From a virus: a stretch of 39,203 nucleotides of DNA. Below are positions 4,773-35,640 of the stretch, in pieces. The position numbers and the translations under genes were made by a program. The notes beneath the pieces are model-generated. The model was given only the letters and a program-made list of their open reading frames with translations, did no database searches and was not told the DNA's origin. Every line of letters starts with the position of its first letter. Position 1 is the stretch's first letter. The stretch is taken from IMG/VR virus record IMGVR_UViG_3300032200_000007. One strand, given 5' to 3'.

Positions 4773-4774
4773 AA

Positions 4775-10023: not shown

Positions 10024-10059
10024 TCCGGGTTGTAGGCAATATCGCCGAGTCTTAAATTG

Positions 10060-10362
10060 ATGGAGTTCGCCGTGAGCGCAAATGATGATTACGAGGCTTT
10101 CGCCGAGAGATTTTATAAAAAATTTGGATTCTTACCTTTAGGTAAAGATGATCCGTGTCGTCCTTCTGCCGAAACCATTCTTGCCCGCCTTGGTGAAACC
10201 CTTGGCGAACTCGAACTGGCGGAATCGGCGGTACGTGCCTATAACACAGGCAGCCTGCAATGCCCACACTGGGGACGTTCTACGGATGGCGTTCATGTTG
10301 TCGTGGTTGATAGGTGCTACAATCCTGATTGCCTACAGTGGGCACAGCAGGCGGGTGCCTGA
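10060..10362 (+). CDS. Hypothetical protein (100 aa)
   Basis: Track ORF 10057..10362; first ATG at 10060. Confidence 0.5.
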   Translation: MEFAVSANDDYEAFAERFYKKFGFLPLGKDDPCRPSAETILARLGETLGELELAESAVRAYNTGSLQCPHWGRSTDGVHVVVVDRCYNPDCLQWAQQAGA

Positions 10363-10363
10363 T

Positions 10364-10423
10364 GCCGTTATGCGAAATTCGCCCCGCCTTTTGGTTGTAG
10401 GGCGCTTAACATTCAACGAAGGG
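10364..10423 (+). repeat. Intergenic repeat element R3 (diverged)
   Basis: Sequence: gccgtt-atgcg-aaattcgcc-ccgcctttt-ggttgtag-ggcgc...gaaggg. Confidence 0.55.
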
Positions 10424-10430
10424 TTGTGTC

Positions 10431-10556
10431 GTGAGAAAGTGGCTTAAGCATATCGTTCATGCGGTCGCCGTCCGGGTTGGCCTTTCCAGGTGTCCGGCGT
10501 GCGGGTATTATGCATTTAACGGATCGGAATGTTTCGACTGTGGCTATCGCGCCTGA
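10431..10556 (+). CDS. Small zinc-ribbon protein (41 aa)
   Basis: Hand translation from GTG 10431 (GAAGGG RBS): VRKWLKHIVHAVAVRVGLSRCPACGYYAFNGSECFDCGYRA. Confidence 0.4.
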   Translation: MRKWLKHIVHAVAVRVGLSRCPACGYYAFNGSECFDCGYRA

Positions 10557-10709
10557 AGACAGCGGAAGCTGGGCGAACGTCCCCATAACAGCGAATATAT
10601 GAAACGCGGATTTAAACCCAGTGGCGAAGTGTATAGCCAAACGGTATGCGGTGATGCTCCGGGAAGGCTGCAGCTTATCCGGAGCTACATCCGCGCTTCA
10701 CATATTCGC

Positions 10710-10768
10710 AACACGTTGCATGCAATTCGCCCTTGAAGAAGGGATATTGTAGGCGCGGCAAAGAGAGG
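10710..10768 (+). repeat. Intergenic repeat element R4
   Basis: Sequence: aacacgtt-gcatgc-aattcgcc-cttgaagaaggga-tattgtag-gcgcggcaaagagagg. Confidence 0.7.
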
Positions 10769-10773
10769 TAACT

Positions 10774-10992
10774 ATGGATATTTGCGAAGGTTGTCAAGCG
10801 CGTGACGGTTGTCTATCGCCGTGTAATCGTAATATACCGCCCGACGATCACGAAGACGATGGGTGTCCTGATTTTGCAAACTGTAAGCGCATCCAGCGGT
10901 GGTTAGCCGCGCAGAAGGCTATGGAGGCGGGCGAACCACAGGCAACACCGCCAGCCCAAAATGCCGAAGCGGACACTTCGGGCGTGGCGTAA
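10774..10992 (+). CDS. Small Cys-rich protein (72 aa)
   Basis: ORF track; MDICEGCQARDGCLSPCNRN...GCPDFANCKR. Confidence 0.5.
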   Translation: MDICEGCQARDGCLSPCNRNIPPDDHEDDGCPDFANCKRIQRWLAAQKAMEAGEPQATPPAQNAEADTSGVA

Positions 10993-11068
10993 ACGTTATA
11001 CAAAATTCGCCCCGCTTTTGAATTATAGGTGGCGGCAAAACCACGGCGCATCGTGCGCCGAAGAAAGG
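10992..11068 (+). repeat. Intergenic repeat element R5
   Basis: Sequence: aacgtt-atacaa-aattcgcc-ccgcttttga-attatag-gtggcggcaaaa, plus an extra hairpin cggcgca-tcg-tgcgccg before the RBS. Confidence 0.7.
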
Positions 11069-11077
11069 AAAAAGAAA

Positions 11078-11467
11078 ATGGAAAACGTAATTAAGACAGA
11101 AATCCAGTTGAGCGAGGAGATGGTTGCCAAAATCGTTGCTTCTGAAACATCAAAAGCACTTGTAAAGGTGCCTGAATTTTTGGAGAACATGGTAAAACAA
11201 ATGCTTTTTCATCGCCCCAAAAAAGAGTATTCTTACAGCGAAGAAAAACCGACGCTGTATGAGTCTCTGGTTCAACAGTATCTGCGACCAATAGCAGAAG
11301 AAGAAATAAAAAAGGCAGCGGAAGAGTGGAGACCTAAATTGAGCGCAATAGTAAAAAAAGCATTCAAAACAAACGTTCTTGACAATAAAGCTTTTGAAGA
11401 AAGGATGTTGATTCAGCTTTCAAAGTTTTCATCGAATATTACGTTTTATGTGCCAAGTAAAGACTGA
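11078..11467 (+). CDS. Hypothetical protein (129 aa)
   Basis: Met40 of track ORF 10961..11467, with GAAAGGAAAAAG upstream. The upstream part of the track ORF is element R5. Confidence 0.55.
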   Translation: MENVIKTEIQLSEEMVAKIVASETSKALVKVPEFLENMVKQMLFHRPKKEYSYSEEKPTLYESLVQQYLRPIAEEEIKKAAEEWRPKLSAIVKKAFKTNVLDNKAFEERMLIQLSKFSSNITFYVPSKD

Positions 11468-11625
11468 AGAGCGCACGTCCTGTGCGCGGAATGCCGCCAC
11501 GGGAACACTAAGGAAGCGGGGCGAACTTCGTACAACAGCCGCAGCCCAACATGTCAAAGCCCACGTCGGGCGAGCAGCGGCGGTCCGTTGTGACGCAATA
11601 GGCCGCGAGAATATAAAGAGTGCAA

Positions 11626-11910
11626 ATGTTAAGTTTTAAAAAATGGTATCCGACGTACTCATGCTACAAGGTTTGGGATGATTCAAGACGTGAATATATG
11701 CGCGTGCACATGCAGGAGGCGTATGAAGTTGCGCTCCTAAATAATAAGAAAGCGCGGCCTACAGTTCGGGCGAAGCGCACCGTGCAACAACGCAAGGGCG
11801 AAACCGTGCTTGATTGCCGCGACTGCGTTGGTCGTGCTATGTGTCTAAAGGCGCGGGTAGGTTACATTTGCGGTGCTTTCAAACAGCGCACGGCATCGCC
11901 CGTTGCGTAA
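11626..11910 (+). CDS. Hypothetical basic, Cys-containing protein (94 aa)
   Basis: Track ORF 11620..11910; first ATG at 11626. Confidence 0.45.
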   Translation: MLSFKKWYPTYSCYKVWDDSRREYMRVHMQEAYEVALLNNKKARPTVRAKRTVQQRKGETVLDCRDCVGRAMCLKARVGYICGAFKQRTASPVA

Positions 11911-12126: not shown

Positions 12127-12753
12127 ATGGATACAAGAATTATTCCAGATATCGGTTCTACACATAATGGTAATTTTAAAAATTGTGTTTCAGCAATAAT
12201 AAACGCCAGCGCTTCCGGAGTAAAAGATATAAAATTTCAGCTTCTTGAGAAAAGACACGTCAAAAATGGCAATATACCAATAGATAAAAAATGGTTGCCC
12301 GACCTTGTTAAAATCGGGAAGGAAAACAATATTAATGTTTTTGCTTCTGTCTGGTCTTTAGATTCAATGAAAACATTGAGAGACGCCGGAGCGGATACGG
12401 TAAAATTCGCATACTCAATGATCAATGAATTGTCATTGCAGAGAAAGGCGATGATAATGTTTGAAGAGGTTATAATATCTGGTGACATAATGAATGTTCC
12501 TATAATTCCATGCCTTAAATTATTTTGCGTTCCAATGTATCCGGTATATTTTAAAATATCTTTTGAAGAATTATTTCCAAAATTCGACGGCTTTTCAGAT
12601 CATACCATGGGAATAAGTCAGACGATTGATGCGATAAAATACGGCGCAAAAATCATAGAAAAACACGTGTGTCAAGACAAGCCTTCAAATTGTCCTGATG
12701 CGCGCTTTGCTGTTTCTTGGGACAAAATAAAATATCTTGCCGAAAGGTTCTGA
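12127..12753 (+). CDS. NeuB/PseI/LegI-family nonulosonic-acid synthase-like protein, short form (208 aa, no SAF domain)
   Basis: Motifs IIPDIGSTHNGN, SGVKDIKFQ, AGADTVKF, GFSDHTMGISQTIDAIKYGAKIIEKH and CPDARFAVS follow the NeuB TIM-barrel pattern. ATG 12127 lies within track ORF 12082..12753. Confidence 0.75.
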   Translation: MDTRIIPDIGSTHNGNFKNCVSAIINASASGVKDIKFQLLEKRHVKNGNIPIDKKWLPDLVKIGKENNINVFASVWSLDSMKTLRDAGADTVKFAYSMINELSLQRKAMIMFEEVIISGDIMNVPIIPCLKLFCVPMYPVYFKISFEELFPKFDGFSDHTMGISQTIDAIKYGAKIIEKHVCQDKPSNCPDARFAVSWDKIKYLAERF

Positions 12754-13401
12754 ATGAAAATCTTGATTATCGGGAGCAATGGAAGTACCGGAAAAAGATA
12801 CTCGAAAATTCTTTCTGAAAATGGAAATGAAATAATACCATACGACATAGAAGAATTTAAAAAAGACCTTGGATTAGAAATTCCATCTTGCGATAAAGCA
12901 ATTATAGCGTGTCCAACAAAAATTCATTATCATTTGTACTTTAGAACTAAAACATGGAATTATAATTTGAAACCTAATGATATTTTAATAGAAAAACCAG
13001 TTTCTGATAAAATAGAAAATATTACTGGAACATATGTAATAAAACCGATTGAATGCAAAATGGTTTGTAACTGGGCATTCGTATTTCCCGACGAAATATT
13101 GTACCCTGGGACAAGCACAGTATATTACAACTATTTAAACACGGGGAAAGAGGGCTACTGGTTCGACACGTGCCAGCTTCATATACTGTCAAACGGTAGG
13201 GGACAAATAACAAACGATAGTCCTCAATTCAATGCAAAGATCAACGATAGAACCATTACCAAGAAAATGATCGAAAAATCATATGAACGCATGATTTGTT
13301 CATGGTTGAACAACCCTGATGAAATATGGAATGTACAGGATTTGATACCAGAGCTATCTTACATTATAAGAAAGCATGATATCGAAAATGGACAAATCTA
13401 A
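12754..13401 (+). CDS. Rossmann-fold oxidoreductase-like protein (Gfo/Idh/MocA-like N-terminus)
   Basis: MKILIIGSNGSTGKRY plus an ILIEKP motif. It is embedded in the sugar cassette. Confidence 0.5.
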   Translation: MKILIIGSNGSTGKRYSKILSENGNEIIPYDIEEFKKDLGLEIPSCDKAIIACPTKIHYHLYFRTKTWNYNLKPNDILIEKPVSDKIENITGTYVIKPIECKMVCNWAFVFPDEILYPGTSTVYYNYLNTGKEGYWFDTCQLHILSNGRGQITNDSPQFNAKINDRTITKKMIEKSYERMICSWLNNPDEIWNVQDLIPELSYIIRKHDIENGQI

Positions 13402-13963
13402 ATTTGTAATAGGTATTCAGGCGAGAAGCGGAAGTACGAGATTCCCGTATAAAGTATTAAAATCGCTCGACGGATCACCGATGTGGCGAACAGTTTTGTA
13501 CAATGCGGAAAAAACAAAAATTGAAACATATATATTGATACCTCATAATGACGAAATGTTAAAAGATAGTGTTTACGAATGTGGGTGTTATGATAAACGA
13601 ATACTCGGAAATGAAAAAAAACCTCTTTTAAGATTTATAAAATTATTAAACGAACATCCGAAAGAATACATTATACGAATTACCGCAGATTGCCCGCTCA
13701 TAGGCAAGGAAATAATTCTTGACGTTGCAAATTTTGCAGAAAAGAAAAAAGCCGTTTTCGTATATAATGAACTAGATGGGATGGACGTACAGGTAGCGCA
13801 CGTATCTCTGTTCGAAAAAGAGATTTATCTTGACAATGAACACGTGTTCAATATGGAAAAAATAAAAGAACATGGACTTTATACAAAATGGGAAATGCAT
13901 CTTTCTGTAGACACGAAAGAGCAATACGATCATATTAAGTTTTTGATGGAGGATGAATCATGA
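13388..13963 (+). CDS. Acylneuraminate/SpsF-type cytidylyltransferase-like protein
   Basis: IQARSGSTRFPYKVLKSLDGSPM and IIRITADCPLIG match the CTP_transf_3 pattern. An alternative ATG is at 13376. Confidence 0.7.
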   Translation: MDKSKFVIGIQARSGSTRFPYKVLKSLDGSPMWRTVLYNAEKTKIETYILIPHNDEMLKDSVYECGCYDKRILGNEKKPLLRFIKLLNEHPKEYIIRITADCPLIGKEIILDVANFAEKKKAVFVYNELDGMDVQVAHVSLFEKEIYLDNEHVFNMEKIKEHGLYTKWEMHLSVDTKEQYDHIKFLMEDES

Positions 13964-15078
13964 TTTTCGGCGGCGCGTCAACGTTTTCTAAAATGCATTG
14001 CAATTATCCCGACGGGTTTCCTGAATATTTCGAGTGCTGTGAAGGACAATATTTAATTGACAATTCAAGAAACAGATATTTCGATACTGTTTCCGCCCTT
14101 GGCGCTCAACTTATCGATTACAGGAACGGCGGCATGATGTCGTTACCATGTTCTACGGAAAAAGAACTCGCTGAAATATTGAAACAGAAAATGCCGTTTA
14201 TTGAAATGGTAAGATACGGAAATAACGGGGCCGACACAAGCGAGGGGGCTTTGCGATACGCCAGGGCGCACACCGGAAAGAAATGGATTTTAAGCTATGG
14301 TTATCATTCGTGCCAATCTGCATTTACCAATCAGACACCGCCGGCGCTCGGATGCGTTGAAGGATTTATACGGCAATTTGAAACGCTTGATCTACTTCTT
14401 TCCTGGATGAATGTAAACGAAATAAACGATATTGCCGGAATAATCGTTGAGCCGGTCATTCTCGATCTAAACGTTAAACGAGAACTTGAAACATTGCGAA
14501 AAATAACAGCGCAAAAAGGAATAGTTCTTATTTTTGATGAAATAATAACAGGGTTCAGGGTCCCGGAGTTTTGTATTTCAAATTGGTTCAAAATATTTCC
14601 CGATATAATACTTTTAGGAAAGGGTATCGGAGGCGGGTATCCGCTATCAATTATCGGCGGAAGAAAAGAAATAATGAACAAGCCGGTTTTTATTTCCTAT
14701 ACCTTCGCCGGATTTCCGGAAGCGATAGACAGGGCGCTTTTCGTATGTACAACTTCAAACGATGATATTTTAAAGCTGTGGGAAACATCGGGGAAGTTTA
14801 TTCATGAATTTAACGAATTCTCTTTTGGCGTAAAGCTAAAAGGATACAATACCCGCTGTATATGGGATGGACCGCGAGAACTTGTTTATACCTTCTGGCA
14901 GGAAATGCTGAAAAAAAAAGTGTTTCTCGGGCCGGTGTTTTTTCCGAAACTTACCTGGACGGAAGAAATATTCAAAAGCCTTTTGATAACGTTCAGCGAA
15001 TGCATTCACGATATAAAATCAAATAACATTACGCTTTCAGGCCATATGCCGGAACCGATTTTCAAGAGGAATACATGA
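13960..15078 (+). CDS. Class-III PLP aminotransferase (glutamate-1-semialdehyde aminomutase-like)
   Basis: FGGASTFSK near the N-terminus, IIVEPV, DEIITGFR, and LGKGIGGGYPLS carrying the candidate PLP lysine. Confidence 0.75.
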   Translation: MIFGGASTFSKMHCNYPDGFPEYFECCEGQYLIDNSRNRYFDTVSALGAQLIDYRNGGMMSLPCSTEKELAEILKQKMPFIEMVRYGNNGADTSEGALRYARAHTGKKWILSYGYHSCQSAFTNQTPPALGCVEGFIRQFETLDLLLSWMNVNEINDIAGIIVEPVILDLNVKRELETLRKITAQKGIVLIFDEIITGFRVPEFCISNWFKIFPDIILLGKGIGGGYPLSIIGGRKEIMNKPVFISYTFAGFPEAIDRALFVCTTSNDDILKLWETSGKFIHEFNEFSFGVKLKGYNTRCIWDGPRELVYTFWQEMLKKKVFLGPVFFPKLTWTEEIFKSLLITFSECIHDIKSNNITLSGHMPEPIFKRNT

Positions 15079-15500
15079 AACTAAAAATTAATCTTGTAGA
15101 AGTAGACGCTTCAAACAATTCCGATCTTTTGCTTTTATGGCGCTGCCTTGCGGAACGTCCGAAACGTGCGAACATCAGCCATGATGGAAAGTTGCCTTTA
15201 TGGGAAAACCATGTTGAATTCGTCAAATCAAAACCGTACCGTGAATGGTACATAATAAAAGTCTTGGTCGAAGGAACGTGGATGAGTTGCGGGAACTTCT
15301 ACATTACTCACCGGAACGAGGTAGGAATTTTTATCCTGAAGCAATACAAGCGTTGCGGAATTGCGTTTTCAGTTCTGAAAAAAATTCCTAATAAGGGAGA
15401 ATTTTTTGCCAACATCGCTCCTCGCAACTACCCGTCGCAGCGGCTTTTCAAAAAATGCGGATTTGTTCACGTTCAAAACACGTACAGGAGGGGCAAGTGA
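15075..15500 (+). CDS. GNAT-family N-acetyltransferase
   Basis: VGIFILKQYKRCGIAFSVLKKI (motif A-like) and NYPSQRLFKKCGF. Confidence 0.65.
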   Translation: MKLKINLVEVDASNNSDLLLLWRCLAERPKRANISHDGKLPLWENHVEFVKSKPYREWYIIKVLVEGTWMSCGNFYITHRNEVGIFILKQYKRCGIAFSVLKKIPNKGEFFANIAPRNYPSQRLFKKCGFVHVQNTYRRGK

Positions 15501-16420
15501 ACTACTTCATCACCGGCGGTACCGGCACAATCGGCCGCGAAATCGTAAGTCTTCTTTTAGGCGATACGAAAATGTGCGCTGAAAAGATTGTCGTATATTC
15601 CCGCGACGAACAGAAGCACGCCGAAATGATGAATCTGTTTCCGGAAGGCGGTGAATCCGGATTGCGTTACATTGTCGGCGATATATGCGATTACAGCCGA
15701 CTGCTCTACGCCATGGATAAAGCTGGTGTAGTTATCCACACCGCGGCAATGAAGCATATAGACAAGTGCGAATATAACCCCACCGAAAGCGTAAGGATAA
15801 ACGTCATCGGATCAATGAACGTTGCAAAAGCCTGCAGGGAAACCGGGGTTCAACAGGCGGTAATTATTTCGACCGACAAGGCATGTAATCCGATAAGTGC
15901 ATACGGGGCGCAAAAATATGCGGCTGAACGGCTATGGATCGGGATGAACAATCTTTCCTCAAAAACGATGTTTAACGTCGTTCGTTACGGGAACGTGCTC
16001 GGTTCAAGAGGATCGTTCATCTACCACTGGCAAAATCTTCTTAAAGAAAAAAAACCGATTCAGATAACTGACGAAAATATGACGCGCTTTTTCTGGACGG
16101 TTCATGAGGCCGGAAAATTCATACTGTCAAGAATCACAGACGGATTTCAGAATAGGGATCGCGGCCTTGTTTATATTCCAAAAATGGGAAAATGCAAAAT
16201 CATCGATATGGCAAAATCGTTGTCTGAAAATATTGAAATCGTCGGGATGCGCTGCCCGGAGAAAATACATGAAGAGATGATTTCAATTACAGAAGGAGCA
16301 AGCGCTTACGATTGCGGAGACCATTATATAATTTACCCTTTGATGCATGACTGGTGCAGAAGTATTATTCCACGCGGTTGTAAATGTCCTGAAGGATTCC
16401 GACTTACCTCTGAAGTATAG
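15497..16420 (+). CDS. PseB/FlaA1/CapD-family UDP-sugar 4,6-dehydratase
   Basis: GTG 15497 follows AGGAGG (15486..15491) and forms a GTGA overlap with the GNAT stop. Motifs: FITGGTGTIG, YSRDEQKHAEM, VIHTAAMKHIDKCEYNP, STDKACNPISAYGAQKYAAE. Confidence 0.8.
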   Translation: MNYFITGGTGTIGREIVSLLLGDTKMCAEKIVVYSRDEQKHAEMMNLFPEGGESGLRYIVGDICDYSRLLYAMDKAGVVIHTAAMKHIDKCEYNPTESVRINVIGSMNVAKACRETGVQQAVIISTDKACNPISAYGAQKYAAERLWIGMNNLSSKTMFNVVRYGNVLGSRGSFIYHWQNLLKEKKPIQITDENMTRFFWTVHEAGKFILSRITDGFQNRDRGLVYIPKMGKCKIIDMAKSLSENIEIVGMRCPEKIHEEMISITEGASAYDCGDHYIIYPLMHDWCRSIIPRGCKCPEGFRLTSEV

Positions 16421-16475: not shown

Positions 16476-16505
16476 CAGCCGGGCGGCAACCCGGCTGGTT
16501 TTTTT
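16476..16505 (+). terminator. Rho-independent terminator at the convergence point of the two arms
   Basis: cagccggg-cggcaa-cccggctg followed by gttttttt. The reverse orientation is followed by tttgtt, so it may be weakly bidirectional. Confidence 0.75.
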
Positions 16506-17089
16506 CATTGTAAAGTATAAATCACTGTTTGGTTGCAATTACTTCCCTTAGATGAATCAGCGCCCCATACTTGAGTTGTTCCTTCGGAAAAAATCAATTG
16601 AGAAGTATATGTTGATGTAAAATAGGCTACAGCATTAGTTGTGACCGTTCCGCTCGAATACCACCTTGTCGGGTTTATTATTGCATTCAATATAATTCCC
16701 CCTGATGCTCCAGAGGCGACAGTTGGTTGAATTGCAGATGGAAGTCCGTTTAATGACATACACGGAATACCATCAGAATTAGCAAGGAATTCAGGAACAA
16801 ACAAAGTTACAGTATTGTAAACTTTTTCATATTTTACCGTTATTGATGTATCTCCCGAACTGGTTCCTGAAACAGTTGCCGTAAACGATCCGGTCAAATA
16901 TCCTGTATCGGCTATGATATGGCTTGCCAAGGTAACTCCAGAAACCTTCAGGCTCCCGCACCCAAGGTCTGAACTGCTTCCGCTGTTTATCGATCCGATA
17001 ATATCAGTGAAATTCTGGTTCACCTCGTCGGCGTCGATATAATTACCGGCACCGTTTACAAAAGTATAAGTTACTGATGGATCAGCCAT
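16505..17089 (-). CDS. Tail fibre-like protein (194 aa)
   Basis: The N-terminus TYTFVNGAGNYIDADEVNQNFTDI resembles phage fibre N-termini. The rest is Ser/Thr/Gly-rich. It is the last gene in a T7-like structural order. Confidence 0.55.
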   Translation of the reverse strand: MADPSVTYTFVNGAGNYIDADEVNQNFTDIIGSINSGSSSDLGCGSLKVSGVTLASHIIADTGYLTGSFTATVSGTSSGDTSITVKYEKVYNTVTLFVPEFLANSDGIPCMSLNGLPSAIQPTVASGASGGIILNAIINPTRWYSSGTVTTNAVAYFTSTYTSQLIFSEGTTQVWGADSSKGSNCNQTVIYTLQ

Positions 17090-25508: not shown

Positions 25509-28500
25509 CTAAAATCTATAACTTATGTCAAAAGGTTTTATTCCTCCGCTTCCCGCTGCCAGATCAGCGCTTCCTTCAGTAAACAATTGCAACTCACCAG
25601 CCAGCGGCTGAATCAACCCAATAACGTTTGTACTATTATTATATATCTGCACTGGAATTAACGCTTTATCACCTGTATACCGTGCGGATTTTATCGATGG
25701 ACATTTTACATACGCTCCGCCACCGCTCAACGTCCCAAGAATCTGATTGCCAGTTATTCTTATAGTGCTATCGGAATATTTAACGAGAAAATAAGCGATC
25801 GACCGCGCCCTGTATGTTGCTCCGTCATAAAGCGAACAATACGCACTGAAAGACGAATCCGAAAGCACCATCAATCTTTTACAGACAAGCGTGTCTTTCC
25901 TGATTTCAACGGAAGACGTATCGGTAGAAACTCCTGTTGCATCCCTTGCGTCAGCAGTATCGGTATAGCTGAATCTCAACACCCCGGTTACATTTCTCGC
26001 TGCGTATACTGTCCGCGATCCGGAATACAAGTCGAATACCAATCTTGAATAGGTATCATCATCAGGACGTAATTGAAAATCATCTCCTGAAAATTTTATA
26101 TTCCATGCCCCGGTAGGGCATGTTAAATATTTTTTTGCTGTCAACCCGAAATCGGGATTATAATAGAAAAACCCGTAATCCGTAAATGGCGTATCGGCTT
26201 TCATTAAATCAGTAAGCGTGTCGCCTGATGTTATCGGGATATTTCCATCCGTAACGGTTCCTTGTATCGGAGTCGGAAGATTATATTCTGACCACATTTT
26301 CTTACAAATTACAATAGTTGATTTTGTGGTATCTGTAGGACAAATCGTATCAACAACCGCAAGTATTCGATTTCTTGCCGTTGATTCAGACGTGGAAAGG
26401 ATATAGTTATATGTTTGAAAATCATCACTTTGAGTGTGCCAAAAATAAACTTTTCCGCGACATTTAAACATGTAAACAGTATCAACTATTCCGTTTGTCC
26501 ATCCGCCAGGATTATAAAACATCCCATCGTTGCTATATATATATCCCTGTATTGCCGCCGCTATCGGAAAATCTGACCAGTAACTATTTCCATGTATTTG
26601 AAGTTCAAACATTGTGTTTGACGTGGTATCAATACTTGTTTTAATTAATATTCCATTTGCATAATGATAAACAGGAACATTAAAATATGTTTTCGCAAAG
26701 CAAGCTCCGCTGTCAGAACTTATATTTTCACGAATATCAAAATAATCTCCGGTATCGGTTACAGAGCTACTCTTCAGTGTAGAATCGGTATCAACCATCG
26801 GCAGGTTGCCGATATTAAGATTCCAGAGTTTCAGCTTTCCGTTTTTCAGATGATAATTACCGGTTCCTACCGTTCTGCTATTAAATATCATGTTGCTGCC
26901 ATCGTAATAAATCCCGGCGTCCTGCCCTTCTCCGAAAACAATTTTACTCGTATCGCTGTCTAAATTCAACCCGCCTTCAAACTGGCTTTGCGCGGCATGT
27001 TCCGAATAAATACACCAATCCGTCGTAACCGTCGCAGAACCGACCGGTGCATTTATCACAATATCCCAATTCTTAGCTATCGTTCCTGTCCCTTGACGAT
27101 ATGGATTCATTTCAATTCCTGCGACTCCGCCAGAAACATTTCCAACTATCGATCCGTTTGTTCCATAATTGAACCTTAACCCGTATAGTGCACCGACAGT
27201 TCCGGAAGTTAAAAGATATGCACGCATCCAAAACCCATGATACGATCCGGCATCAACAAGGTCGGCGCTGGCAAGATTGGCATAGCAGTATGCATTCAAA
27301 GCATATCCGCCGTAATTACCGTTTGCGGTTACATCTGCATCAGTATAAAAATATCCGTTGTATCTATTGGCCAGATTAGTCGGATTATAATATCCGTAAA
27401 ATTTTATGTTTGATACCGGAGCAACTCCGTATGACAAATTGGAATACGAAGAATTGTATCTCAATTCGCTGTTGCTAAGCGCATGAGAAGAACTGAAATA
27501 AGGAACATAATTAGCCGTTCCGTTTATCCGCGCATTGCATGTGTCGTCAACGTCTTTTGCATGATCGGCGATTACGGCGCTATCGGCCTTGCCATGCAGA
27601 GGAAGCCTGTTGTTCAGCGTATCCCTGATAATATCCAATGAATCCGATACTGCAGCCGTCGATATTGCGCCTATTCCAGTGCGAAAAGAAGATGCGGAAA
27701 TTCCTCCTACAAGTCCATCGCCGCGTATTATTGGAACCGTATCGGTCATTGATATCATAGAGATGTCTTTAATAATAGTGGAATCTTCTATTTTTAACCC
27801 TCCATGCTTTATCCAAACAGGATACCATTTGTCACGGTATGGATAAGAATAGAAATCTTTAAAAAGCGAATCGTTTAATGTCATTTGCCCGGTACTGTCA
27901 ATTATCGCAATATGGTCAATAAATGTTTCAGGAGAAGGGTCCGAAACAGAACGAATGACAAATTTATTTTTACCTGTATATCCACCTGCCTGCATCTTTA
28001 AGCTTGCAATGGCAAAATGACCTTGATACCAACCGTAAAATGTTTGAAGATTTTCAAGCATCAATCTCGCGTATGAATTCGCGGAACTAGAATTATTCAA
28101 TATCAAAAATAATGGATTTGAAACATTGGAAGTTCCATAAGTCAACAATGGACCATGCCCGTAATAAGTATTTCCATCGTAATGCAATAACGAATCGTCG
28201 AGCAACGACGATGATTTTGCAACAGCAAAATAATTTGTTGCTACTCCATGAAGAAGACTTAAACCTATTGTTGCCGTATCCGATCTTTGCGATTTCAGTG
28301 AAGCCCTTACGCTGTCAGGAGTGTTAAGTGCTGTATCAGCGGTATCAGAATAAACGGCATGAGTTACCGAGTCGGGAATTATCGTATCGACAGGGCAGGC
28401 TTTCATCAGGTTGCTGGCGCTGTCGAACACTGCGAAATAATGAGGAGAAGTGGCAAGCGGCTTCGTTATTATATATAAAGAATCATTTAACTGAAGCCGT

Positions 28501-28586
28501 CCGTTGTTTCCCTGTATGCTGTCGGTTTCAAGAAATTCAGCGCTGCATACCGATACAATGAAAAGAAAAACGGCAATTCGTCGCAT
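25509..28586 (-). CDS. Large beta-rich protein (1,025 aa) with a Sec-type signal peptide; fibre/adhesin-like
   Basis: Met11 of the track ORF; its ATG overlaps the upstream TGA, and AGGGGGG lies upstream. N-terminus MRRIAVFLFIVSVCSA/EF. N/S/T/G/Y-rich. C-terminus ...KPFDISYRF. Confidence 0.6.
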   Translation of the reverse strand: MRRIAVFLFIVSVCSAEFLETDSIQGNNGRLQLNDSLYIITKPLATSPHYFAVFDSASNLMKACPVDTIIPDSVTHAVYSDTADTALNTPDSVRASLKSQRSDTATIGLSLLHGVATNYFAVAKSSSLLDDSLLHYDGNTYYGHGPLLTYGTSNVSNPLFLILNNSSSANSYARLMLENLQTFYGWYQGHFAIASLKMQAGGYTGKNKFVIRSVSDPSPETFIDHIAIIDSTGQMTLNDSLFKDFYSYPYRDKWYPVWIKHGGLKIEDSTIIKDISMISMTDTVPIIRGDGLVGGISASSFRTGIGAISTAAVSDSLDIIRDTLNNRLPLHGKADSAVIADHAKDVDDTCNARINGTANYVPYFSSSHALSNSELRYNSSYSNLSYGVAPVSNIKFYGYYNPTNLANRYNGYFYTDADVTANGNYGGYALNAYCYANLASADLVDAGSYHGFWMRAYLLTSGTVGALYGLRFNYGTNGSIVGNVSGGVAGIEMNPYRQGTGTIAKNWDIVINAPVGSATVTTDWCIYSEHAAQSQFEGGLNLDSDTSKIVFGEGQDAGIYYDGSNMIFNSRTVGTGNYHLKNGKLKLWNLNIGNLPMVDTDSTLKSSSVTDTGDYFDIRENISSDSGACFAKTYFNVPVYHYANGILIKTSIDTTSNTMFELQIHGNSYWSDFPIAAAIQGYIYSNDGMFYNPGGWTNGIVDTVYMFKCRGKVYFWHTQSDDFQTYNYILSTSESTARNRILAVVDTICPTDTTKSTIVICKKMWSEYNLPTPIQGTVTDGNIPITSGDTLTDLMKADTPFTDYGFFYYNPDFGLTAKKYLTCPTGAWNIKFSGDDFQLRPDDDTYSRLVFDLYSGSRTVYAARNVTGVLRFSYTDTADARDATGVSTDTSSVEIRKDTLVCKRLMVLSDSSFSAYCSLYDGATYRARSIAYFLVKYSDSTIRITGNQILGTLSGGGAYVKCPSIKSARYTGDKALIPVQIYNNSTNVIGLIQPLAGELQLFTEGSADLAAGSGGIKPFDISYRF

Positions 28587-28789
28587 CAGTACCCCCCTTT
28601 GATGCACGTATGCCATGCAGAACCTTCATATACCTGAACCTTGAGGCGGCTGTCCTCCCATATCAGCCGTATCTTCGGATCGGTTCCGAATTCGATGTAA
28701 TTCTCACCGAGAACCACATCAATCGTGCGTAGATACCGGTTATCGTTGTATTTTAAGTGTGACTGTAAAGTCTCTTGCCTGAAAGGCAT
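28586..28789 (-). CDS. Hypothetical protein (67 aa)
   Basis: ORF track; GGAAGGAG RBS. Confidence 0.5.
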   Translation of the reverse strand: MPFRQETLQSHLKYNDNRYLRTIDVVLGENYIEFGTDPKIRLIWEDSRLKVQVYEGSAWHTCIKGGY

Positions 28790-28828
28790 TGGATACTCCT
28801 TCCCGCCGAAACGGGGTGAGGATTATCC

Positions 28829-29068
28829 CTACACCCCGAAAACAACAACCTGATACGACGCCCCCGACAATGCCGTGCATGCCGCAATACTGCTCGCGCT
28901 GTGCGTAAGCCTTGCCATTTGTGAACTCGTTCCGACAACCTGGATAACCCGGTTAAGTCCGGTACCGGCAGCGTCGCCGGAATTGCTGTCGTCCATCGCC
29001 AGCGTTCCGGCCATTACACGCCATGATCCCATTACGGTTTCATCTGATTTTGTAAACGTATTCGACAT
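28829..29068 (-). CDS. Small Ser/Ala/Gly-rich protein (79 aa)
   Basis: ORF track. Confidence 0.5.
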   Translation of the reverse strand: MSNTFTKSDETVMGSWRVMAGTLAMDDSNSGDAAGTGLNRVIQVVGTSSQMARLTHSASSIAACTALSGASYQVVVFGV

Positions 29069-29078
29069 TAAAACCTCC

Positions 29079-30128
29079 CTAAAAAAGAAGATGCATTTGC
29101 CCGCTTACCGATTTTTTCAGCATTTCAGGCAATAAATTACTCATGTTGAACATATGCAATACGGTTTTGAGATCGATTTGAATTATCTGCCGTATGTTCC
29201 CCTCATGGTATGCCCCCATGATACCGCCTTCCGTGGCGTTTATCCAGAGATGCGCATTGTTCCCGCTGCCACCGCATGCCATGTAATCGAACCAGTTTTT
29301 GAAACCGAAATATGATCCCCATGTCCATACCCGGTTTCCATAAATGTCGATCCATGGCATGACTCCGGAAAATTTCGCATCATACTGGCTATCCCATGCA
29401 TGAAATTTATGATCGTATGAAAAGCATAAATCCATGCCGATGAAAACAGGGATCGAGCAACCGAGTACCGCCCTGGCAAAATACATCGCCGCGCCCATAA
29501 CGTTCCCGCCGACGTTGAATCCCGGAGTTTTTGATATGTCAACATATTTCGAGATTTCAACGGCAAGAGCAAGTGATGCATACGGCGTCGTATACCACAA
29601 TACCGGCCCTTTCCATTTCGCTATAAAGCCGGGGTGGGTCCCGTGATAAGCGATAAGCGTCCTGTCTTTTGTTCGGTCCCAATACCAGTCTGGATCGTGA
29701 GACCCGCCCTCCGACATTTCACGTATCGTTATATCTCCAGCGTCAAGAACAATGTAATAATCGTCAGACGTCATCAGGTTTCGGTCTTCGCAAAACGGGA
29801 AATTGTGCACTCCGGCGACTATTTTCAAATCCTTTCTTCCGATGGATTTGTCTCCGTCGCCGACAAGCTCTTTCCAGTTCTTTTTCAACGACGGCCCGGC
29901 CCCCATGAGTATCACCGGTTTTCCATAACACGCCATATGAGCGTTAAACGCGCTGTTTTTGACGAAGTCATAGTTCTTCGAATTGGCAGCGGTTTGATCG
30001 ACCCATTGTTTTTCCCATGACTTTATGGTAAGCTCGTCGCAGTTGGTTGCCGCCTTCCACGCCGATTCTTTACCGTTTGGAATGCCGTCTATATAAGGCG
30101 ACAATCTCAAAACCATTTCAATCTGCAT
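29079..30128 (-). CDS. Maf / DUF115 (MAF_flag10, MptE-like) family protein; putative nonulosonic-acid glycosyltransferase
   Basis: Met6 of the track ORF, behind GGAGGAG. Motifs PVILMGAGPSLKKNW, YYIVLDAGD and GGNVMGAAMYFARAVLGCSIPVFIGMDLCFS follow the DUF115 pattern (GxGPSL ... D ... GGsv..A..lA..lG...i.l.G.Dl). Confidence 0.6.
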   Translation of the reverse strand: MQIEMVLRLSPYIDGIPNGKESAWKAATNCDELTIKSWEKQWVDQTAANSKNYDFVKNSAFNAHMACYGKPVILMGAGPSLKKNWKELVGDGDKSIGRKDLKIVAGVHNFPFCEDRNLMTSDDYYIVLDAGDITIREMSEGGSHDPDWYWDRTKDRTLIAYHGTHPGFIAKWKGPVLWYTTPYASLALAVEISKYVDISKTPGFNVGGNVMGAAMYFARAVLGCSIPVFIGMDLCFSYDHKFHAWDSQYDAKFSGVMPWIDIYGNRVWTWGSYFGFKNWFDYMACGGSGNNAHLWINATEGGIMGAYHEGNIRQIIQIDLKTVLHMFNMSNLLPEMLKKSVSGQMHLLF

Positions 30129-30143
30129 ATGTTTCTCCTCCAT

Positions 30144-30174
30144 AAAAAACTACCCGGCGGAATTACCCGCCGGG
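30144..30174 (-). terminator. Rho-independent terminator after the capsid/decoration genes
   Basis: On the - strand: cccggcgg-gtaatt-ccgccggg followed by tagtttttt. Confidence 0.75.
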
Positions 30175-30180
30175 ATTACA

Positions 30181-30231
30181 TTATCTGCCTTTCGGCTTTC
30201 TTACTCTTCGCTTTTTACCTCCACACGGCAT
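30181..30231 (-). CDS. Possible 16-codon micro-ORF encoding a highly basic peptide
   Basis: TAAGGAGGcaacATG. Product MPCGGKKRRVRKPKGR. It lies between the decoration-like gene and the terminator. Confidence 0.25.
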   Translation of the reverse strand: MPCGGKKRRVRKPKGR

Positions 30232-30240
30232 GTTGCCTCC

Positions 30241-30726
30241 TTACGCGCAATTGACGCGCACGGTAAACGTGCCATATGAAGACGCTGCTGTCGCGGTAAG
30301 AGCAACCCCGACAGGCTGGTACAAATTGCCGGTCGTCGCAGAGCCGGAACGGAAATAACCGTCCGTGTCAAGCGCGACATAATGACCTGCCGTAGTACCG
30401 GAGCTCGTTTCACACCCCGGAACGACACCGTTGACGACGACCCAGCCATAATACCCGGTAGGAATCGTGGCATGGTAGACCACACCGCCGATATCATAAT
30501 CCCCTGCAGTTGAGCTTACCGTCAGAGAATACCCGGAGCTTGCCGATGCATTCGCTCCGATATACACCATGGCTTTTCCAGGGCATGCCTGTGAAGAAGA
30601 TTTGTTGTATATATACCGGTATTTATTACCGTTCTGCCAGCGTTCCGTCCCGAGCTGTATGCTGTTAGTCGCGGTAACGCTGCTTACCGATTCTTCGAAT
30701 AAAGTTTGAAGACCGTAGTTAGACAT
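30241..30726 (-). CDS. Ser/Thr-rich capsid decoration/cement-like protein (161 aa)
   Basis: It follows the major capsid gene directly. 38 of 161 residues are Ser/Thr by hand count. The C-terminal half GYYGWVVVNGVVPG...PVGVALTATAA...FTVRVN resembles DUF2190-type decoration proteins. Confidence 0.5.
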   Translation of the reverse strand: MSNYGLQTLFEESVSSVTATNSIQLGTERWQNGNKYRYIYNKSSSQACPGKAMVYIGANASASSGYSLTVSSTAGDYDIGGVVYHATIPTGYYGWVVVNGVVPGCETSSGTTAGHYVALDTDGYFRSGSATTGNLYQPVGVALTATAASSYGTFTVRVNCA

Positions 30727-30740
30727 TTTTCACCTCCTTC

Positions 30741-31652
30741 TTAAGTCAAGGCGGTCATCATGCCGTGCATCCTGTTATTGGAGCTTGTCATGACGCCCGT
30801 CCAGAAAATTTGTGCGACTTTGACGTTCTGATTCGTCGGCTGACGGAACCCGCTGAACCTGAAATTCTCATCCTTGTGGGCGAGCAGGCCAAGATAGGTT
30901 TCGTTCAGGCAGTACAGATACCCGCTGGTGCAATGCGAATCGACGATTACCGGGATACCGTTGAAAATCAGGTTTTTGAAACCGGCTTTCAGCGTTTCCT
31001 CGTCGGCGAAACGCTGCTGCGGCTGAATTGCCGCCCAGAGATCGTCAAACATATCCTGCGTTGTGACGATAACCGTCGGGCCGTCCGCATCGATCGTGCA
31101 ATCGCCCAGAAGCGCCTGCAATGCAACCGGCGTCAGCGCTGTAGTCGAGGAATCCACGTTCGCCTGCCACCAAGAATAAGTAGCCTTCGCAATCGTTCCG
31201 TGTGTTCCGGTCGCCGCGCAAATAAGCTTGATCCCCTGAATCCCGGTAGTGCCGTCGCCGAAAATAGAAGTGGCGAGAGTATCCTTCAGGGTCTTTTCCG
31301 CCAATTGCACCTTTGCCTTGAGATGGTTGATAATGGCGTTTTTCCCGCTGTTTTTCAGTTCGTCGATTCTGGTGATATTGATCGATGCATACGCCTCTTT
31401 CCAATCCCATGACGCTTCAGTTATCTGCGTCGTGTCATTGGTATTGAGCGTCTGCGAACCGCTGTACCATCCAGCGGCCCCCGTCTGTGCATACGCCAGC
31501 GGTTGCGACACGCTGGTGCCTCCGTCGATGGTGTCATACCATCCACGCTTTTTCGACCTCTGAAGCAGAATATTCGAATCGAAAATGTTGTCCACAAGTT
31601 TCGGAATCAGATACTTCTGCGTCAAGGAGGATATTTCTCCTGTAAGAGCCAT
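30741..31652 (-). CDS. Major capsid protein (HK97-fold type)
   Basis: 303 aa, downstream of the scaffold-like gene. The sequence pattern (GG..V.QPL...W.EAYASI.I....L..SG.NAII...) is typical of podovirus capsid proteins. Confidence 0.8.
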   Translation of the reverse strand: MALTGEISSLTQKYLIPKLVDNIFDSNILLQRSKKRGWYDTIDGGTSVSQPLAYAQTGAAGWYSGSQTLNTNDTTQITEASWDWKEAYASINITRIDELKNSGKNAIINHLKAKVQLAEKTLKDTLATSIFGDGTTGIQGIKLICAATGTHGTIAKATYSWWQANVDSSTTALTPVALQALLGDCTIDADGPTVIVTTQDMFDDLWAAIQPQQRFADEETLKAGFKNLIFNGIPVIVDSHCTSGYLYCLNETYLGLLAHKDENFRFSGFRQPTNQNVKVAQIFWTGVMTSSNNRMHGMMTALT

Positions 31653-31664
31653 TTTTTTCTCCTG

Positions 31665-32549
31665 TTAAGATTTCATTTCGGCTTTCATTTTATCGGCAAG
31701 AGATTTATACGAATCGCCGTATTTATATCCCTCCGCCGGAGCGCTGCCGCCAGCAGCTCCCTGACTTATCACACCGGCCTTTTGCGCCTTCGCCCGCGCT
31801 TCAGCCTCTTTTTTCAAAGCTGCGGCCTTTGCGTTCGTTCCGTTCTGGTCGAACATCATGGCGCGATACGCATAATCCAGGTTGGAAATCCCGTTTTCAT
31901 ACGCGAATTGAATCACCTTCTTTTCGAGATTCCCCGTCCCGTCGTCGAAATCCCAGTCATGACCAGCATACGTTGCCCTCATCTTCGACACTTGGTCTGC
32001 AAGCTGACGGTCGTATTCTTTATTGATCCGTTCGGTATTCAGTTTCTCCAGCTCGCCGAGTCGTGTTACCAGCCCGTTGTAAAGCTGATAATTCACACCG
32101 TTTGCGGGTTGCTGACCATCCTGTTGACCGCCCGTCTGGAATTCCTGCGCAAGCTGCATCATGCGCTCGGAAAACGCCGGATTTTTCTTCATCAATGAAT
32201 CAATATCGTCGTAGTGCCGGTACTTGGACTGCATATCGTCGATACGCTGTTGCCATTCGCGGCGCTCGCGGTTGATCCGCTCCATTTCCTGAGTGTACGA
32301 AAAACCTTTCTGCGCGAGATTAACTAATTCCTGCCGATCCTTCGGAACATACGGCTGCCCGCGATACTTCAGCCCCCACTCGGACCCGTTGAACTGCCCT
32401 TGTGGAGCCGGTTGAGTAGGCTGCTGTCCGCCACCAGAAGCTCCAGGTTGATCGACTCCGGTTTCAGGAGGTAGTGCCCCTGATTCTCCGGACTGCTGTC
32501 CTCCCTCTTCAATCTCGCCCTCTCTAGGCATTCCGTCGTAATTGCCCAT
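31665..32549 (-). CDS. Scaffolding-like protein
   Basis: 294 aa, charged and coiled-coil-rich, immediately upstream of the capsid gene. Confidence 0.55.
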   Translation of the reverse strand: MGNYDGMPREGEIEEGGQQSGESGALPPETGVDQPGASGGGQQPTQPAPQGQFNGSEWGLKYRGQPYVPKDRQELVNLAQKGFSYTQEMERINRERREWQQRIDDMQSKYRHYDDIDSLMKKNPAFSERMMQLAQEFQTGGQQDGQQPANGVNYQLYNGLVTRLGELEKLNTERINKEYDRQLADQVSKMRATYAGHDWDFDDGTGNLEKKVIQFAYENGISNLDYAYRAMMFDQNGTNAKAAALKKEAEARAKAQKAGVISQGAAGGSAPAEGYKYGDSYKSLADKMKAEMKS

Positions 32550-32579
32550 TTTTCTCCTCCGTTTATAAGGTAATTGCCG

Positions 32580-32801
32580 TTACCAATCATTCCCTTTTGT
32601 AAACTTTACTCCGCCGCCGCTCACGTTGTCCGGGCCGACCTTGTTCACGATGTCACCTGAAGCGGTGAATCCGTCTTCCATTCCCTTCGGGAACTGTACG
32701 GGACCACCGGCCTGCAGGCCGGGAGACCGCTCTGATTTCATTTCTCCGCTTCCCGCATCCTGGCCGCCGTTACCGGCGAACGTCACACCCTTGTCACTCA
32801 T
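32580..32801 (-). CDS. Gly-rich small protein (73 aa)
   Basis: ORF track. Confidence 0.45.
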   Translation of the reverse strand: MSDKGVTFAGNGGQDAGSGEMKSERSPGLQAGGPVQFPKGMEDGFTASGDIVNKVGPDNVSGGGVKFTKGNDW

Positions 32802-32815
32802 AAAAACCCCTTTCG

Positions 32816-33196
32816 TTAAATTACCGGTATTTTCCCGGCTTGCGACCGCGCTCCAGCGGACATATTGCCGGTCATTTGGTTCATTCCGCCGCCCTGCAAT
32901 GGGACGCGGCCGCCACCGCTTGTAGGAGGCCCGCCGTTCGGGGCTGGCGGGGCCATCTGCGATTGGTCGGCACCGCGTCCCTGAATCAATTCGACGAATC
33001 GCCTCATAATCTCCTGCATTTCCGGAGCATTCGGGTCTCCCTGCTCTTGTTTCGCAGCAACGAACGTCATCATGGTGCGAAATGCGTCAATAATCGGATT
33101 CCCCTGCGGTGTGGCGGTCCAGCCGCCTTCAGGTTGGTCCTGCTGCGCTCCCTGCGCCCCCTGCGCCGCAATCATTTCTCCCGGACTCATCGGCAT
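32816..33196 (-). CDS. Gly/Gln/Pro-rich low-complexity protein (126 aa)
   Basis: ORF track. Confidence 0.45.
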   Translation of the reverse strand: MPMSPGEMIAAQGAQGAQQDQPEGGWTATPQGNPIIDAFRTMMTFVAAKQEQGDPNAPEMQEIMRRFVELIQGRGADQSQMAPPAPNGGPPTSGGGRVPLQGGGMNQMTGNMSAGARSQAGKIPVI

Positions 33197-35043: not shown

Positions 35044-35329
35044 TTAACCGGCTCATTTCCATCTCGGAATTTTGTGAGATATGCTGCATAATCTCCGCTG
35101 TCGCGCCTTCATACCGGTCGCGTCGCGCCTCCGGCTCAGGCTGCTGGTCCCCGACTTCGACCGCTCCGGCCGGCGGCCGAGTTATCCCATTCGCGCGGAT
35201 TGCAGACGGCGTAAACACCCGGACGGTTTCAGCCCCGCACTTACAACGCGGCGGCTTCAAATCTTCGTGCGAATGGAAATAATAATCATCGCTGGTGCCG
35301 CATTTCAGGCATTTAAATTCGTAAATCAC
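35036..35329 (-). CDS. FmdB-type zinc-ribbon protein (97 aa)
   Basis: GTG 35329 follows GGGGAGGGG and forms a GTGA overlap with the peptidase stop. VIYEFKCLKCG...PPRCKCG matches the CxxC-CxxC FmdB pattern. Confidence 0.55.
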   Translation of the reverse strand: MIYEFKCLKCGTSDDYYFHSHEDLKPPRCKCGAETVRVFTPSAIRANGITRPPAGAVEVGDQQPEPEARRDRYEGATAEIMQHISQNSEMEMSRLNG

Positions 35330-35640
35330 CGCCGCCCCTCCCCGAAAGAATAATGATTTCCGTCCGGACGTTTGAAGTCCCCGCCCCATGTACAAAGATC
35401 ATCCAGTGATTTCCAGTAATCGCCGAACTGCTGATGATCTTCTGTTTTCCTCAAGTAAACGCCGTTTTTGAACAGGTTAATATCAGCAGCAAGGCCGCGG
35501 TAATGAAAAGAACCGGGCTTATGACCTGTGGACGCAGTTACGTCTCCGAGCGTTGCCTCGAATCCACGGTAAAACATTTCCGTGATCAGCTTGCAAAGCA
35601 ACAGCGTAAAAACCGAACGCTTTTCCCGCAGTGTCACCAC
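35326..35640 (-). CDS. Peptidase M15 (VanY / L-Ala-D-Glu peptidase-like); probable endolysin
   Basis: GSFHYRGLAADI...WGGDF..PDGNHYS gives the H-x-D ... H zinc-ligand pattern of M15 cell-wall peptidases. Confidence 0.7.
   Translation of the reverse strand: MVTLREKRSVFTLLLCKLITEMFYRGFEATLGDVTASTGHKPGSFHYRGLAADINLFKNGVYLRKTEDHQQFGDYWKSLDDLCTWGGDFKRPDGNHYSFGEGRR

Follow-up and report, generated by a model that had tools for sequence, protein, structure and literature searches.

We analysed a gene related to Maf, the family of enzymes that glycosylate flagellin in bacteria, in the IMG/VR virus record IMGVR_UViG_3300032200_000007, a stretch of 39,203 nucleotides that we call the window. The gene lies among capsid and tail genes, and the window also encodes a six-gene sugar cassette that may supply its activated sugar. 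The window is the complete, circularly permuted genome (~39.2 kb) of an uncultured podophage, because a 132-kb metagenome contig with the same genes (JGI 3300035552 Ga0393988_04765; L201, L206) crosses the 39203/1 junction of the window into a second copy. We rejected the possibility that this contig is a prophage; it is a concatemer in which copies of the phage genome follow one another head to tail. The plus-strand arm of the genome encodes a Prim-Pol/DnaB primase-helicase and a PDDEXK nuclease and has the sugar cassette last, where it converges with the end of the structural arm. The latter, on the minus strand, encodes in order the small terminase (PF16677), the large terminase (TerL), an M15 peptidase, a portal of the P22/SU10 type, a 294-amino-acid (aa) scaffold-like protein, the major capsid protein, a 161-aa decoration protein, Maf, two small open reading frames (ORFs), a 1035-aa protein, an SU10-type adaptor and the tail genes. 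A first-pass annotation, made from the letters of the sequence, had placed Maf between the capsid/decoration genes and the tail genes, and this is borne out by the capsid protein (phrog_9953) and the decoration-fold neighbour upstream and by the tail and adaptor genes downstream. The features around the gene are as follows.

29079..30128, minus strand: minimal Maf-like (PF01973) gene, putative CMP-nonulosonic-acid:protein O-glycosyltransferase (CMP, cytidine monophosphate), 349 aa; from profile, fold and motifs.
30153..30174, minus strand: intrinsic-terminator-like hairpin and T-run between the decoration gene and Maf; 9-bp stem with 8 G-C pairs.
30241..30726, minus strand: predicted capsid decoration/cement protein, 161 aa, 23.6% Ser/Thr, the leading candidate acceptor; from fold matches of an AlphaFold2 (AF2) model.
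30741..31652, minus strand: major capsid protein, 18% Ser+Thr, an alternative candidate acceptor; phrog_9953, E=2.7e-53, syntenic with Maf in 76/80 loci.
28829..29068, minus strand: 79-aa protein, 25.3% Ser/Thr, directly downstream of Maf; from the ORF and its composition, conserved in the close clade only.

The Maf ORF extends from 29079 to 30143 (354 aa) when read from its first ATG. The second ATG is preceded by a Shine-Dalgarno sequence (GGAGGAG) and is the one used by independent metagenome gene calls, so that the gene probably starts at 30128 and encodes 349 aa. These are the coordinates given in the first-pass annotation, and the three peptides it cited as the family pattern all occur in the translation. 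The profile search that it had proposed gives a match to PF01973 well above the gathering score (E=2e-13, 50.9 bits against 34.6, residues 57-243), which, as a profile match, is far beyond chance. No match to the protein was found in NCBIfam or PHROGs, and a single-sequence phmmer search against the PDB gave a chance match only. We discarded weak profile matches to the G protein of phiX174 (E about 0.01) as spurious, the fold being unrelated and the stretch of low complexity. The phage has no cultured reference, since among the GenBank phages of INPHARED neither Maf (by tblastn) nor the region 27000..33000 (by nucleotides) has a match, and the capsid protein has only relatives of ~30% identity.

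The family PF01973 is named MptE-like and includes kinases. The phage protein could thus be an MptE-like pterin pyrophosphokinase or another nucleotide-using enzyme, or else a catalytically dead morphogenetic protein with a Maf-like fold. The archaeal MptE, a 6-hydroxymethyl-7,8-dihydropterin pyrophosphokinase (8SD5), shares with it the Rossmann-like core of PF01973 and the GxGPS nucleotide loop. A profile built from 45 homologues of the phage protein nevertheless has as its top match in the PDB the Maf of Magnetospirillum (5MU5, E=3.3e-5), ahead of 8SD5 (E=0.066). The ranking is the same for the AF2 model (predicted local distance difference test, pLDDT, 94.5; predicted TM score 0.92): the top Foldseek match is 5MU5 (E=6.9e-8, 292 columns, query-normalised TM 0.49), followed by MptE/HPPK 8SD5, itself a significant structural match (E about 8e-4, 219 columns), and then by human GT29 sialyltransferases. 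This order is the one expected for a Maf, because the central domain of Maf is Cst-II-like (PMC11339370). Maf is thus ahead of MptE in sequence and in structure, in the latter with about 70 more aligned columns. MptE proteins have about 215-240 aa, and the further ~130 residues of the phage protein, including a C-terminal subdomain with an ATEGG motif, have no counterpart in the 215-aa MptE structure but align with bacterial Mafs. No gene for folate, pterin or methanopterin biosynthesis was found in the window, and none of the family motifs varies among phage sequences that are very divergent, an argument for catalysis having been kept. We therefore regard a kinase or an inactive protein as improbable, and have high confidence that the phage protein is a catalytic homologue of the Maf family. 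The first-pass annotation had named the MptE-type kinase branch or an unrelated fold as outcomes that would overturn its proposal, and had suggested comparing a predicted structure with the solved Maf; in the comparisons made here Maf outranks MptE in both profile and fold.

The phage protein is, by its sequence and its model, a homologue of the Maf catalytic core in a different and minimal architecture. An exhaustive search with a hidden Markov model of 1.84 billion representatives recovered 5,976 relatives at E<=1e-3. Outside the clade of the phages, the matches include many proteins of 580-635 aa, which align over their residues ~190-450 with profile positions ~33-330 and whose source names read 'motility associated factor glycosyltransferase family protein'. 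When 9 phage and 10 bacterial sequences are aligned together, 16 columns show no variation; the motifs in common are (S/G)AGPSLxKN, PD...D(A/G)G, GG(S/N)V, GxDL, D(I/V)xG and ATEGG, and the invariant residues include G78, P79, S80, N84, D123, D129, G207, G208, G231, D233, G264, E300, G301 and G302. The phage Mafs have 335-420 aa and align only to residues ~190-450 of the 600-aa bacterial proteins. They thus do not have the three-domain architecture of Maf: the N-terminal domain (~190 aa) and the C-terminal helical domain (~170 aa) are absent. The Maf/DUF115 assignment of the first-pass annotation is correct in this sense, but the protein is not a full flagellin-type Maf, being minimal and without the flagellin-recognition domains.

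The comparison with the bacterial enzymes that O-glycosylate flagellin with nonulosonic acids (NulOs), i.e., Maf of Magnetospirillum (5MU5), CbMaf of C. botulinum, and Maf-1 and Maf-2 of Shewanella, shows both what is common and what has changed. The catalytic PF01973 domain, the invariant motifs and the fold are the same. In phage and bacteria alike, the gene is also linked to genes for a NeuB-type synthase and a cytidylyltransferase, and the enzyme is cytoplasmic and encoded beside the gene of a polymerising surface protein. The bacterial proteins are about 600-650 aa long, whereas the phage protein has 349 aa, with neither the N-terminal Rossmann-like domain nor the C-terminal helical/TPR (tetratricopeptide repeat) domain that binds flagellin (PMC11339370; bioRxiv 10.1101/2023.12.03.569772). 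In bacteria, flagellin is recognised by the C-terminal parts of Maf or by a separate factor, GlfM (bioRxiv 10.1101/2023.12.03.569772), and the phage system has no GlfM-like factor. No flagellar family was found among the ORFs of the window that were scanned (most of those over 120 aa), and the neighbours of Maf are capsid genes. The phage Maf is thus encoded by a virus, in a capsid-assembly operon devoid of flagellar genes, and for this reason its presumed acceptor is a capsid protein and not flagellin.

The position of Maf is conserved at a much larger scale than the window. At least 199 viral contigs of IMG/VR carry a Maf, and we retrieved 80 of these loci to compare their gene orders. The order TerL, portal, scaffold, major capsid protein, decoration protein, Maf and tail was found in 80/80 loci, down to 38% identity in Maf. 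Maf therefore belongs to the core of the head module in a large lineage of uncultured podophages. A sister group of phages (L198; JGI 3300041085, a contig of 30 kb) has the same head synteny with two tandem PF01973 genes (10001-10924 and 10914-11813, encoding 307 and 299 aa). These follow a gene for a 172-aa cement-like protein, and the divergent arm of that contig carries a MannoseP_isomer cupin and a radical-SAM gene. A second pair of paralogues was found on a contig of 3.7 kb. By analogy with Campylobacter and Shewanella, which have several Mafs, such paired genes suggest two sugars or two acceptor specificities.

The second element of the system is the sugar cassette on the plus strand (12127..16420), which the first-pass annotation had described as a sugar-nucleotide pathway and which stands, at the level of families, on Pfam and NCBIfam matches. 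Its genes are as follows.

12127..12753, plus strand: NeuB-family nonulosonate synthase-like protein, short form, 208 aa (gene call); PF03102, E=8.6e-20; top PDB match PseI (8H2C).
12754..13401, plus strand: Rossmann (GxGxxG + EKP) oxidoreductase-like protein, 215 aa; from alignment and motifs, with weak Gfo/Idh/MocA matches in the PDB.
13376..13963, plus strand: cytidylyltransferase (CTP_transf_3), putative CMP-NulO synthetase; PF02348, E=6.8e-16, 59 bits against 22.6.
13960..15078, plus strand: class-III (HemL-like) aminotransferase dependent on pyridoxal phosphate; PF00202, E=6.5e-21; NF000818, E=1.7e-38.
15075..15500, plus strand: GNAT-like N-acetyltransferase, a weak assignment; matches to GNAT families (E about 5e-4) fall short of gathering scores.
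15455..16420, plus strand: PseB-like UDP-N-acetylglucosamine 4,6-dehydratase (Polysacc_synt_2), 307 aa (gene call); PF02719, E=3.6e-73.

The association of a NeuB-family synthase with a cytidylyltransferase is, in terms of gene content, the signature of CMP-nonulosonate synthesis, and the dehydratase, aminotransferase and acetyltransferase would fit a 5,7-diamino sugar like pseudaminic (Pse) or legionaminic (Leg) acid. The NeuB of the phage is a TIM barrel of 208-223 aa that keeps the motifs KFQ, Lys, YP, SDH, EKH and PD. The best NCBIfam match of the dehydratase is PseB (TIGR03589, 282 bits, below the cut-off of 408), and those of the cytidylyltransferase are of the KdsB/PseF type, all below their cut-offs. 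Like the canonical pathways for CMP-pseudaminic acid (PseB, PseC, PseH, PseG, PseI, PseF) and legionaminic acid, the cassette has, at the level of families, a PseB-like 4,6-dehydratase, an aminotransferase, a GNAT, a NeuB-family synthase and a CTP_transf_3, and it is a six-gene operon. It differs from them in using a class-III aminotransferase, in having a Gfo/Idh/MocA-like oxidoreductase and no PseG/LegG, and in the absence of the SAF domain from NeuB. We examined whether the 215-aa protein might be the missing PseG and rejected this, given its Rossmann GxGxxG and EKP signature. The gene was found only on contigs of Maf phages, and its pairing with the class-III aminotransferase, in place of the DegT-type enzyme and PseG, looks like a distinct, phage-borne route to NulOs. 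The earlier proposal that the cassette makes the kind of donor used by Maf thus holds for its families (NeuB, cytidylyltransferase, PseB-like, aminotransferase, GNAT) but not for a canonical Pse pathway. That the cassette makes some CMP-activated, NulO-like sugar is in our view likely, with an appreciable margin for error.

Maf and the cassette genes largely occur together. The full six-gene cassette is present in 4/4 of the close relatives whose contigs reach that region, with 50-71% identity and the same order in the closest ones; in one of the four (Maf 47% identical) the copy is rearranged. The acetyltransferase, whose family match in the window is weak, is 71% identical in relative L104, and its counterpart in L160 is a strong GNAT match. 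L160, whose Maf is only 38% identical, carries a PseB-like gene, a CTP_transf_3, a class-III aminotransferase, a GNAT and a NeuB in a different arrangement, with NeuB inserted between the gene for the small terminase and that for a Dam methyltransferase, which in turn lies ahead of TerL (L160 9513-13096). Of the Maf loci of distant clades that cover the region upstream of TerL, 20/34 have a full-length NeuB-like gene immediately before TerL (e.g., L199 2401-4884 and L021 1269-3649); the packaging module is an unusual place for a metabolic gene of this kind. Conversely, 61/80 of the nearest viral NeuB-like loci belong to the lineage of Maf phages, and all those among these 61 that extend past the capsid gene carry Maf (33/33). 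Maf and NeuB were thus kept together through deep divergence while NeuB changed position, which argues that they are a functional pair. Some near-complete Maf contigs have no NeuB in the parts covered (e.g., L040). A scan of viruses anchored on PseB alone had returned only unrelated loci of giant viruses and large phages; the apparent lack of co-occurrence was overturned by anchors specific to the cassette.

These data bear on two other views of the cassette. In the first, it forms no donor-transferase pair with Maf: Maf would use a donor of the host (CMP-Kdo, Kdo being 3-deoxy-D-manno-octulosonate, or another NulO) or another substrate, and the cassette would remodel the glycans or metabolism of the host. 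Bacterial Mafs are indeed promiscuous for the donor and accept CMP-Neu5Ac (N-acetylneuraminic acid) and CMP-Kdo (PMC11339370; bioRxiv 10.1101/2020.06.03.131540), the cassette is incomplete when measured against the canonical pathways, and some relatives have Maf and NeuB alone or no visible NulO gene. Yet a NeuB-like gene accompanies Maf almost everywhere even as its genomic position moves, the close clade retains all six genes at 50-71% identity, and the NeuB family is otherwise uncommon in small phage genomes, its nearest viral copies being mostly those of the Maf lineage. We hold this view to be unlikely, roughly one that would prove right in a sixth of such cases. In the second, the system would hypermodify the DNA of the phage with sugar, instead of its proteins, an idea suggested by the DNA methyltransferases that adjoin NeuB in one relative and by the phage glycosyltransferases that put diverse glycans on DNA with 5-hydroxymethylcytosine (bioRxiv 10.1101/2023.12.21.572611). 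That study mentions no enzyme using CMP or nonulosonic acids, Maf-family enzymes act on proteins, and Maf is in the head module and not in the replication module. No cytosine C5-methyltransferase, TET/5mYOX or hydroxymethylase was found in the window. A role in DNA modification therefore seems to us very improbable.

Of the genes that flank Maf, the decoration gene encodes the leading candidate acceptor. The decoration protein (23.6%) and the 79-aa protein (25.3%) are among the three most Ser/Thr-rich products of the genome, where most ORFs have ~10-12%. The AF2 model of the 161-aa protein (pLDDT 78) matches capsid auxiliary proteins only, i.e., the decoration protein of HFTV1, the head-fibre base gp8.5 of phi29, the cement protein of Pam3, the stabilising protein of TW1, and the decoration proteins of T1, Sf11 and BB1. 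In Pfam, 4/35 members of its family weakly match PF09956 (Phage_cement_2), with no solid match otherwise. The family has a conserved N-terminal motif, ESVSAVTAT, in which S15 and T18 are >=90% conserved. The Mafs of bacteria use CMP-NulOs to modify Ser/Thr that have apolar neighbours, with no sequon (PMC11339370), and the hydroxyl residues of this motif alternate with apolar ones in a way that resembles the sites of Maf in flagellin. The position of the gene in the operon, the cytoplasmic location of Maf, and the analogy with flagellin, which is glycosylated before export and polymerisation, all favour a surface protein of the virion as the acceptor.

The same chemistry could instead be directed at the host, with a surface protein, a pilus, the S-layer, or a precursor of lipopolysaccharide or capsule as the acceptor, so as to mask receptors for superinfection exclusion or against re-adsorption to debris. 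One relative with a Maf 39% identical to that of the window (L120) encodes a tyrosine integrase (4205-5329), and the lineage therefore includes temperate members; no integrase was seen in the window. Temperate phages often remodel the surface of their hosts, Maf is cytoplasmic like the enzymes that act on lipid-linked precursors, and the phage version has no defined domain for binding an acceptor. On the other hand, conversion genes are normally near the integrase or immunity region and expressed from the prophage, whereas Maf is fixed in the head-morphogenesis module, right after the decoration gene, in all of the 80 loci, in lytic-looking and temperate members alike. Maf-family enzymes are also known as protein O-glycosyltransferases (PMC11339370). 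We consider a host acceptor unlikely, although somewhat less so than a Maf decoupled from the cassette.

The hairpin that lies in the 112-nt gap ahead of Maf has a folding free energy of -18.3 kcal/mol, and comparable hairpins were found upstream of Maf in 21/76 related loci, against 1/61 control regions. The strong terminator noted in the first-pass annotation is therefore a real feature of the sequence, with its 9-bp stem of 8 G-C pairs and its T-run. From this hairpin one may expect Maf to be attenuated to a low, catalytic level of expression. The arm with the cassette would be expressed earlier than the structural arm.

Together, these elements suggest the following mechanism. The cassette would take a UDP-hexosamine through 4,6-dehydration, amination and N-acetylation to a 6-deoxy-hexosamine, which the NeuB-type synthase would condense with phosphoenolpyruvate into a nonulosonic acid like pseudaminic or legionaminic acid, and the cytidylyltransferase would activate this sugar with cytidine triphosphate. 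Late in infection, transcription that reads through the terminator downstream of the capsid and decoration genes would yield a little of the minimal, single-domain Maf. This cytoplasmic enzyme would then move the sugar from its CMP donor to the Ser/Thr hydroxyls of virion surface proteins, of which the likeliest is the Ser/Thr-rich decoration protein encoded just upstream, possibly together with the capsid protein or fibres. The particle would thereby acquire an acidic coat of glycan.

Several observations weigh against this mechanism. As regards the sugar, no family of the PseG/LegG hydrolase or of the NeuC 2-epimerase was detected in the cassette, no DegT/PseC aminotransferase was found (the only aminotransferase, in the window as in the distant clade, being of class III and HemL-like), and all NCBIfam equivalog scores of the cassette enzymes are below cut-offs, with that of NeuB far below those of PseI and NeuB. 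The NeuB of the clade of the window also lacks the C-terminal SAF-like domain (RRLIAT.DIK.GD) that the copies of distant clades have kept (L021 1269-2291, L160 9965-11035). The SAF domain of NeuB contributes to substrate binding, and its loss may therefore have changed the specificity of the phage enzyme. Given the lack of hydrolase and 2-epimerase, the HemL-like aminotransferase and the NeuB without SAF, the product may be something other than Pse or Leg, or enzymes of the host may be needed. As regards the coupling, L120 shows only NeuB in the parts covered, and no NulO gene was found in the covered part of L198. The co-occurrence of Maf and NeuB also reflects in part a shared ancestry, which inflates the counts, since both genes are near-core in one lineage. 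As regards the acceptor, its choice is a guess: decoration and fibre proteins are commonly rich in Ser/Thr, and the phage Maf has no known acceptor-binding domain. Finally, a search for hosts through prophages in 185k species genomes identified none, as it returned 5 short contigs of metagenome-assembled genomes with contradictory taxonomy. The matches assigned to Saccharibacteria, Glaciecola and Actinomycetota (L192-L195) are short contigs with phage-like Maf genes and are probably mis-binned phage contigs.

When both sides are taken into account, we give an even chance to the reading in which the phage makes its own CMP-NulO and uses the minimal Maf to O-glycosylate proteins of the virion. 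The narrower statement, that a globally distributed lineage of podophages O-glycosylates its decoration protein with its own CMP-sialic-acid-like sugar, through a Maf retargeted to a new acceptor, and would thus have the first 'sialylated' phage virions, is tentative and falls just short of even.

Other genes of the structural arm are also of note. The 1035-aa protein (25509-28616, minus strand) has a hydrophobic N-terminus, 18.6% Ser+Thr and no match in Pfam or PHROG. Even in close relatives it is hardly conserved (just one short match, in L002). It is probably a hypervariable receptor-binding fibre or spike, and another possible target of glycosylation. The last gene of the arm, which adjoins the cassette (16505-17089, minus strand), encodes a protein of 194 aa with 26.8% Ser/Thr, the highest of the genome, and no family match. 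The M15-family peptidase (PF13539, ~35084-35395, minus strand), between the genes for TerL and the portal, is probably an endolysin or a virion-associated peptidoglycan hydrolase.

To our knowledge, phage particles were for a long time regarded as practically free of glycosylation, which has been demonstrated for some mycobacteriophages only; the glycosyltransferases of these are conventional and use sugar nucleotides of the host. In these phages (Che8, Rita and others; Freeman et al. 2023, via PMC11256854), phage glycosyltransferases covalently modify the capsid proteins of the phage itself, as we propose here from gene content and position in the operon. In PMC11256854, the putative glycosyltransferase genes of the mycobacteriophages are placed close to the 3' end of the genome and apart from the head genes, without mention of a dedicated sugar-nucleotide pathway, whereas the phage studied here has a NulO pathway and a sialyltransferase-like Maf in its head module. 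The first-pass annotation knew of no described phage system of this kind, and our full-text searches of the literature agree: they turned up neither a phage Maf nor glycosylation of virions with NulOs by a phage-encoded system. Protein glycosylation with NulOs by Maf and the glycosylation of phage virions are thus each known already, and it is for their combination in a phage that no precedent was found.

The proposed mechanism can be tested directly by heterologous co-expression, with no need to culture the phage. If it is true, it would provide a naturally minimal NulO protein glycosyltransferase, of 349 aa and with a small, well-defined candidate acceptor, that is attractive for glyco-engineering. 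It would extend the Maf family beyond flagellin and imply that the machinery of flagellin glycosylation was repurposed for viral capsids. A whole lineage of environmental phages would then carry, as core equipment, a factory for acidic nine-carbon sugars and a transferase directed at the capsid, and the surface chemistry of phages, i.e., their charge, their stickiness, their resistance to proteases and grazing, and their recognition by hosts and immune systems, would have to be rethought.

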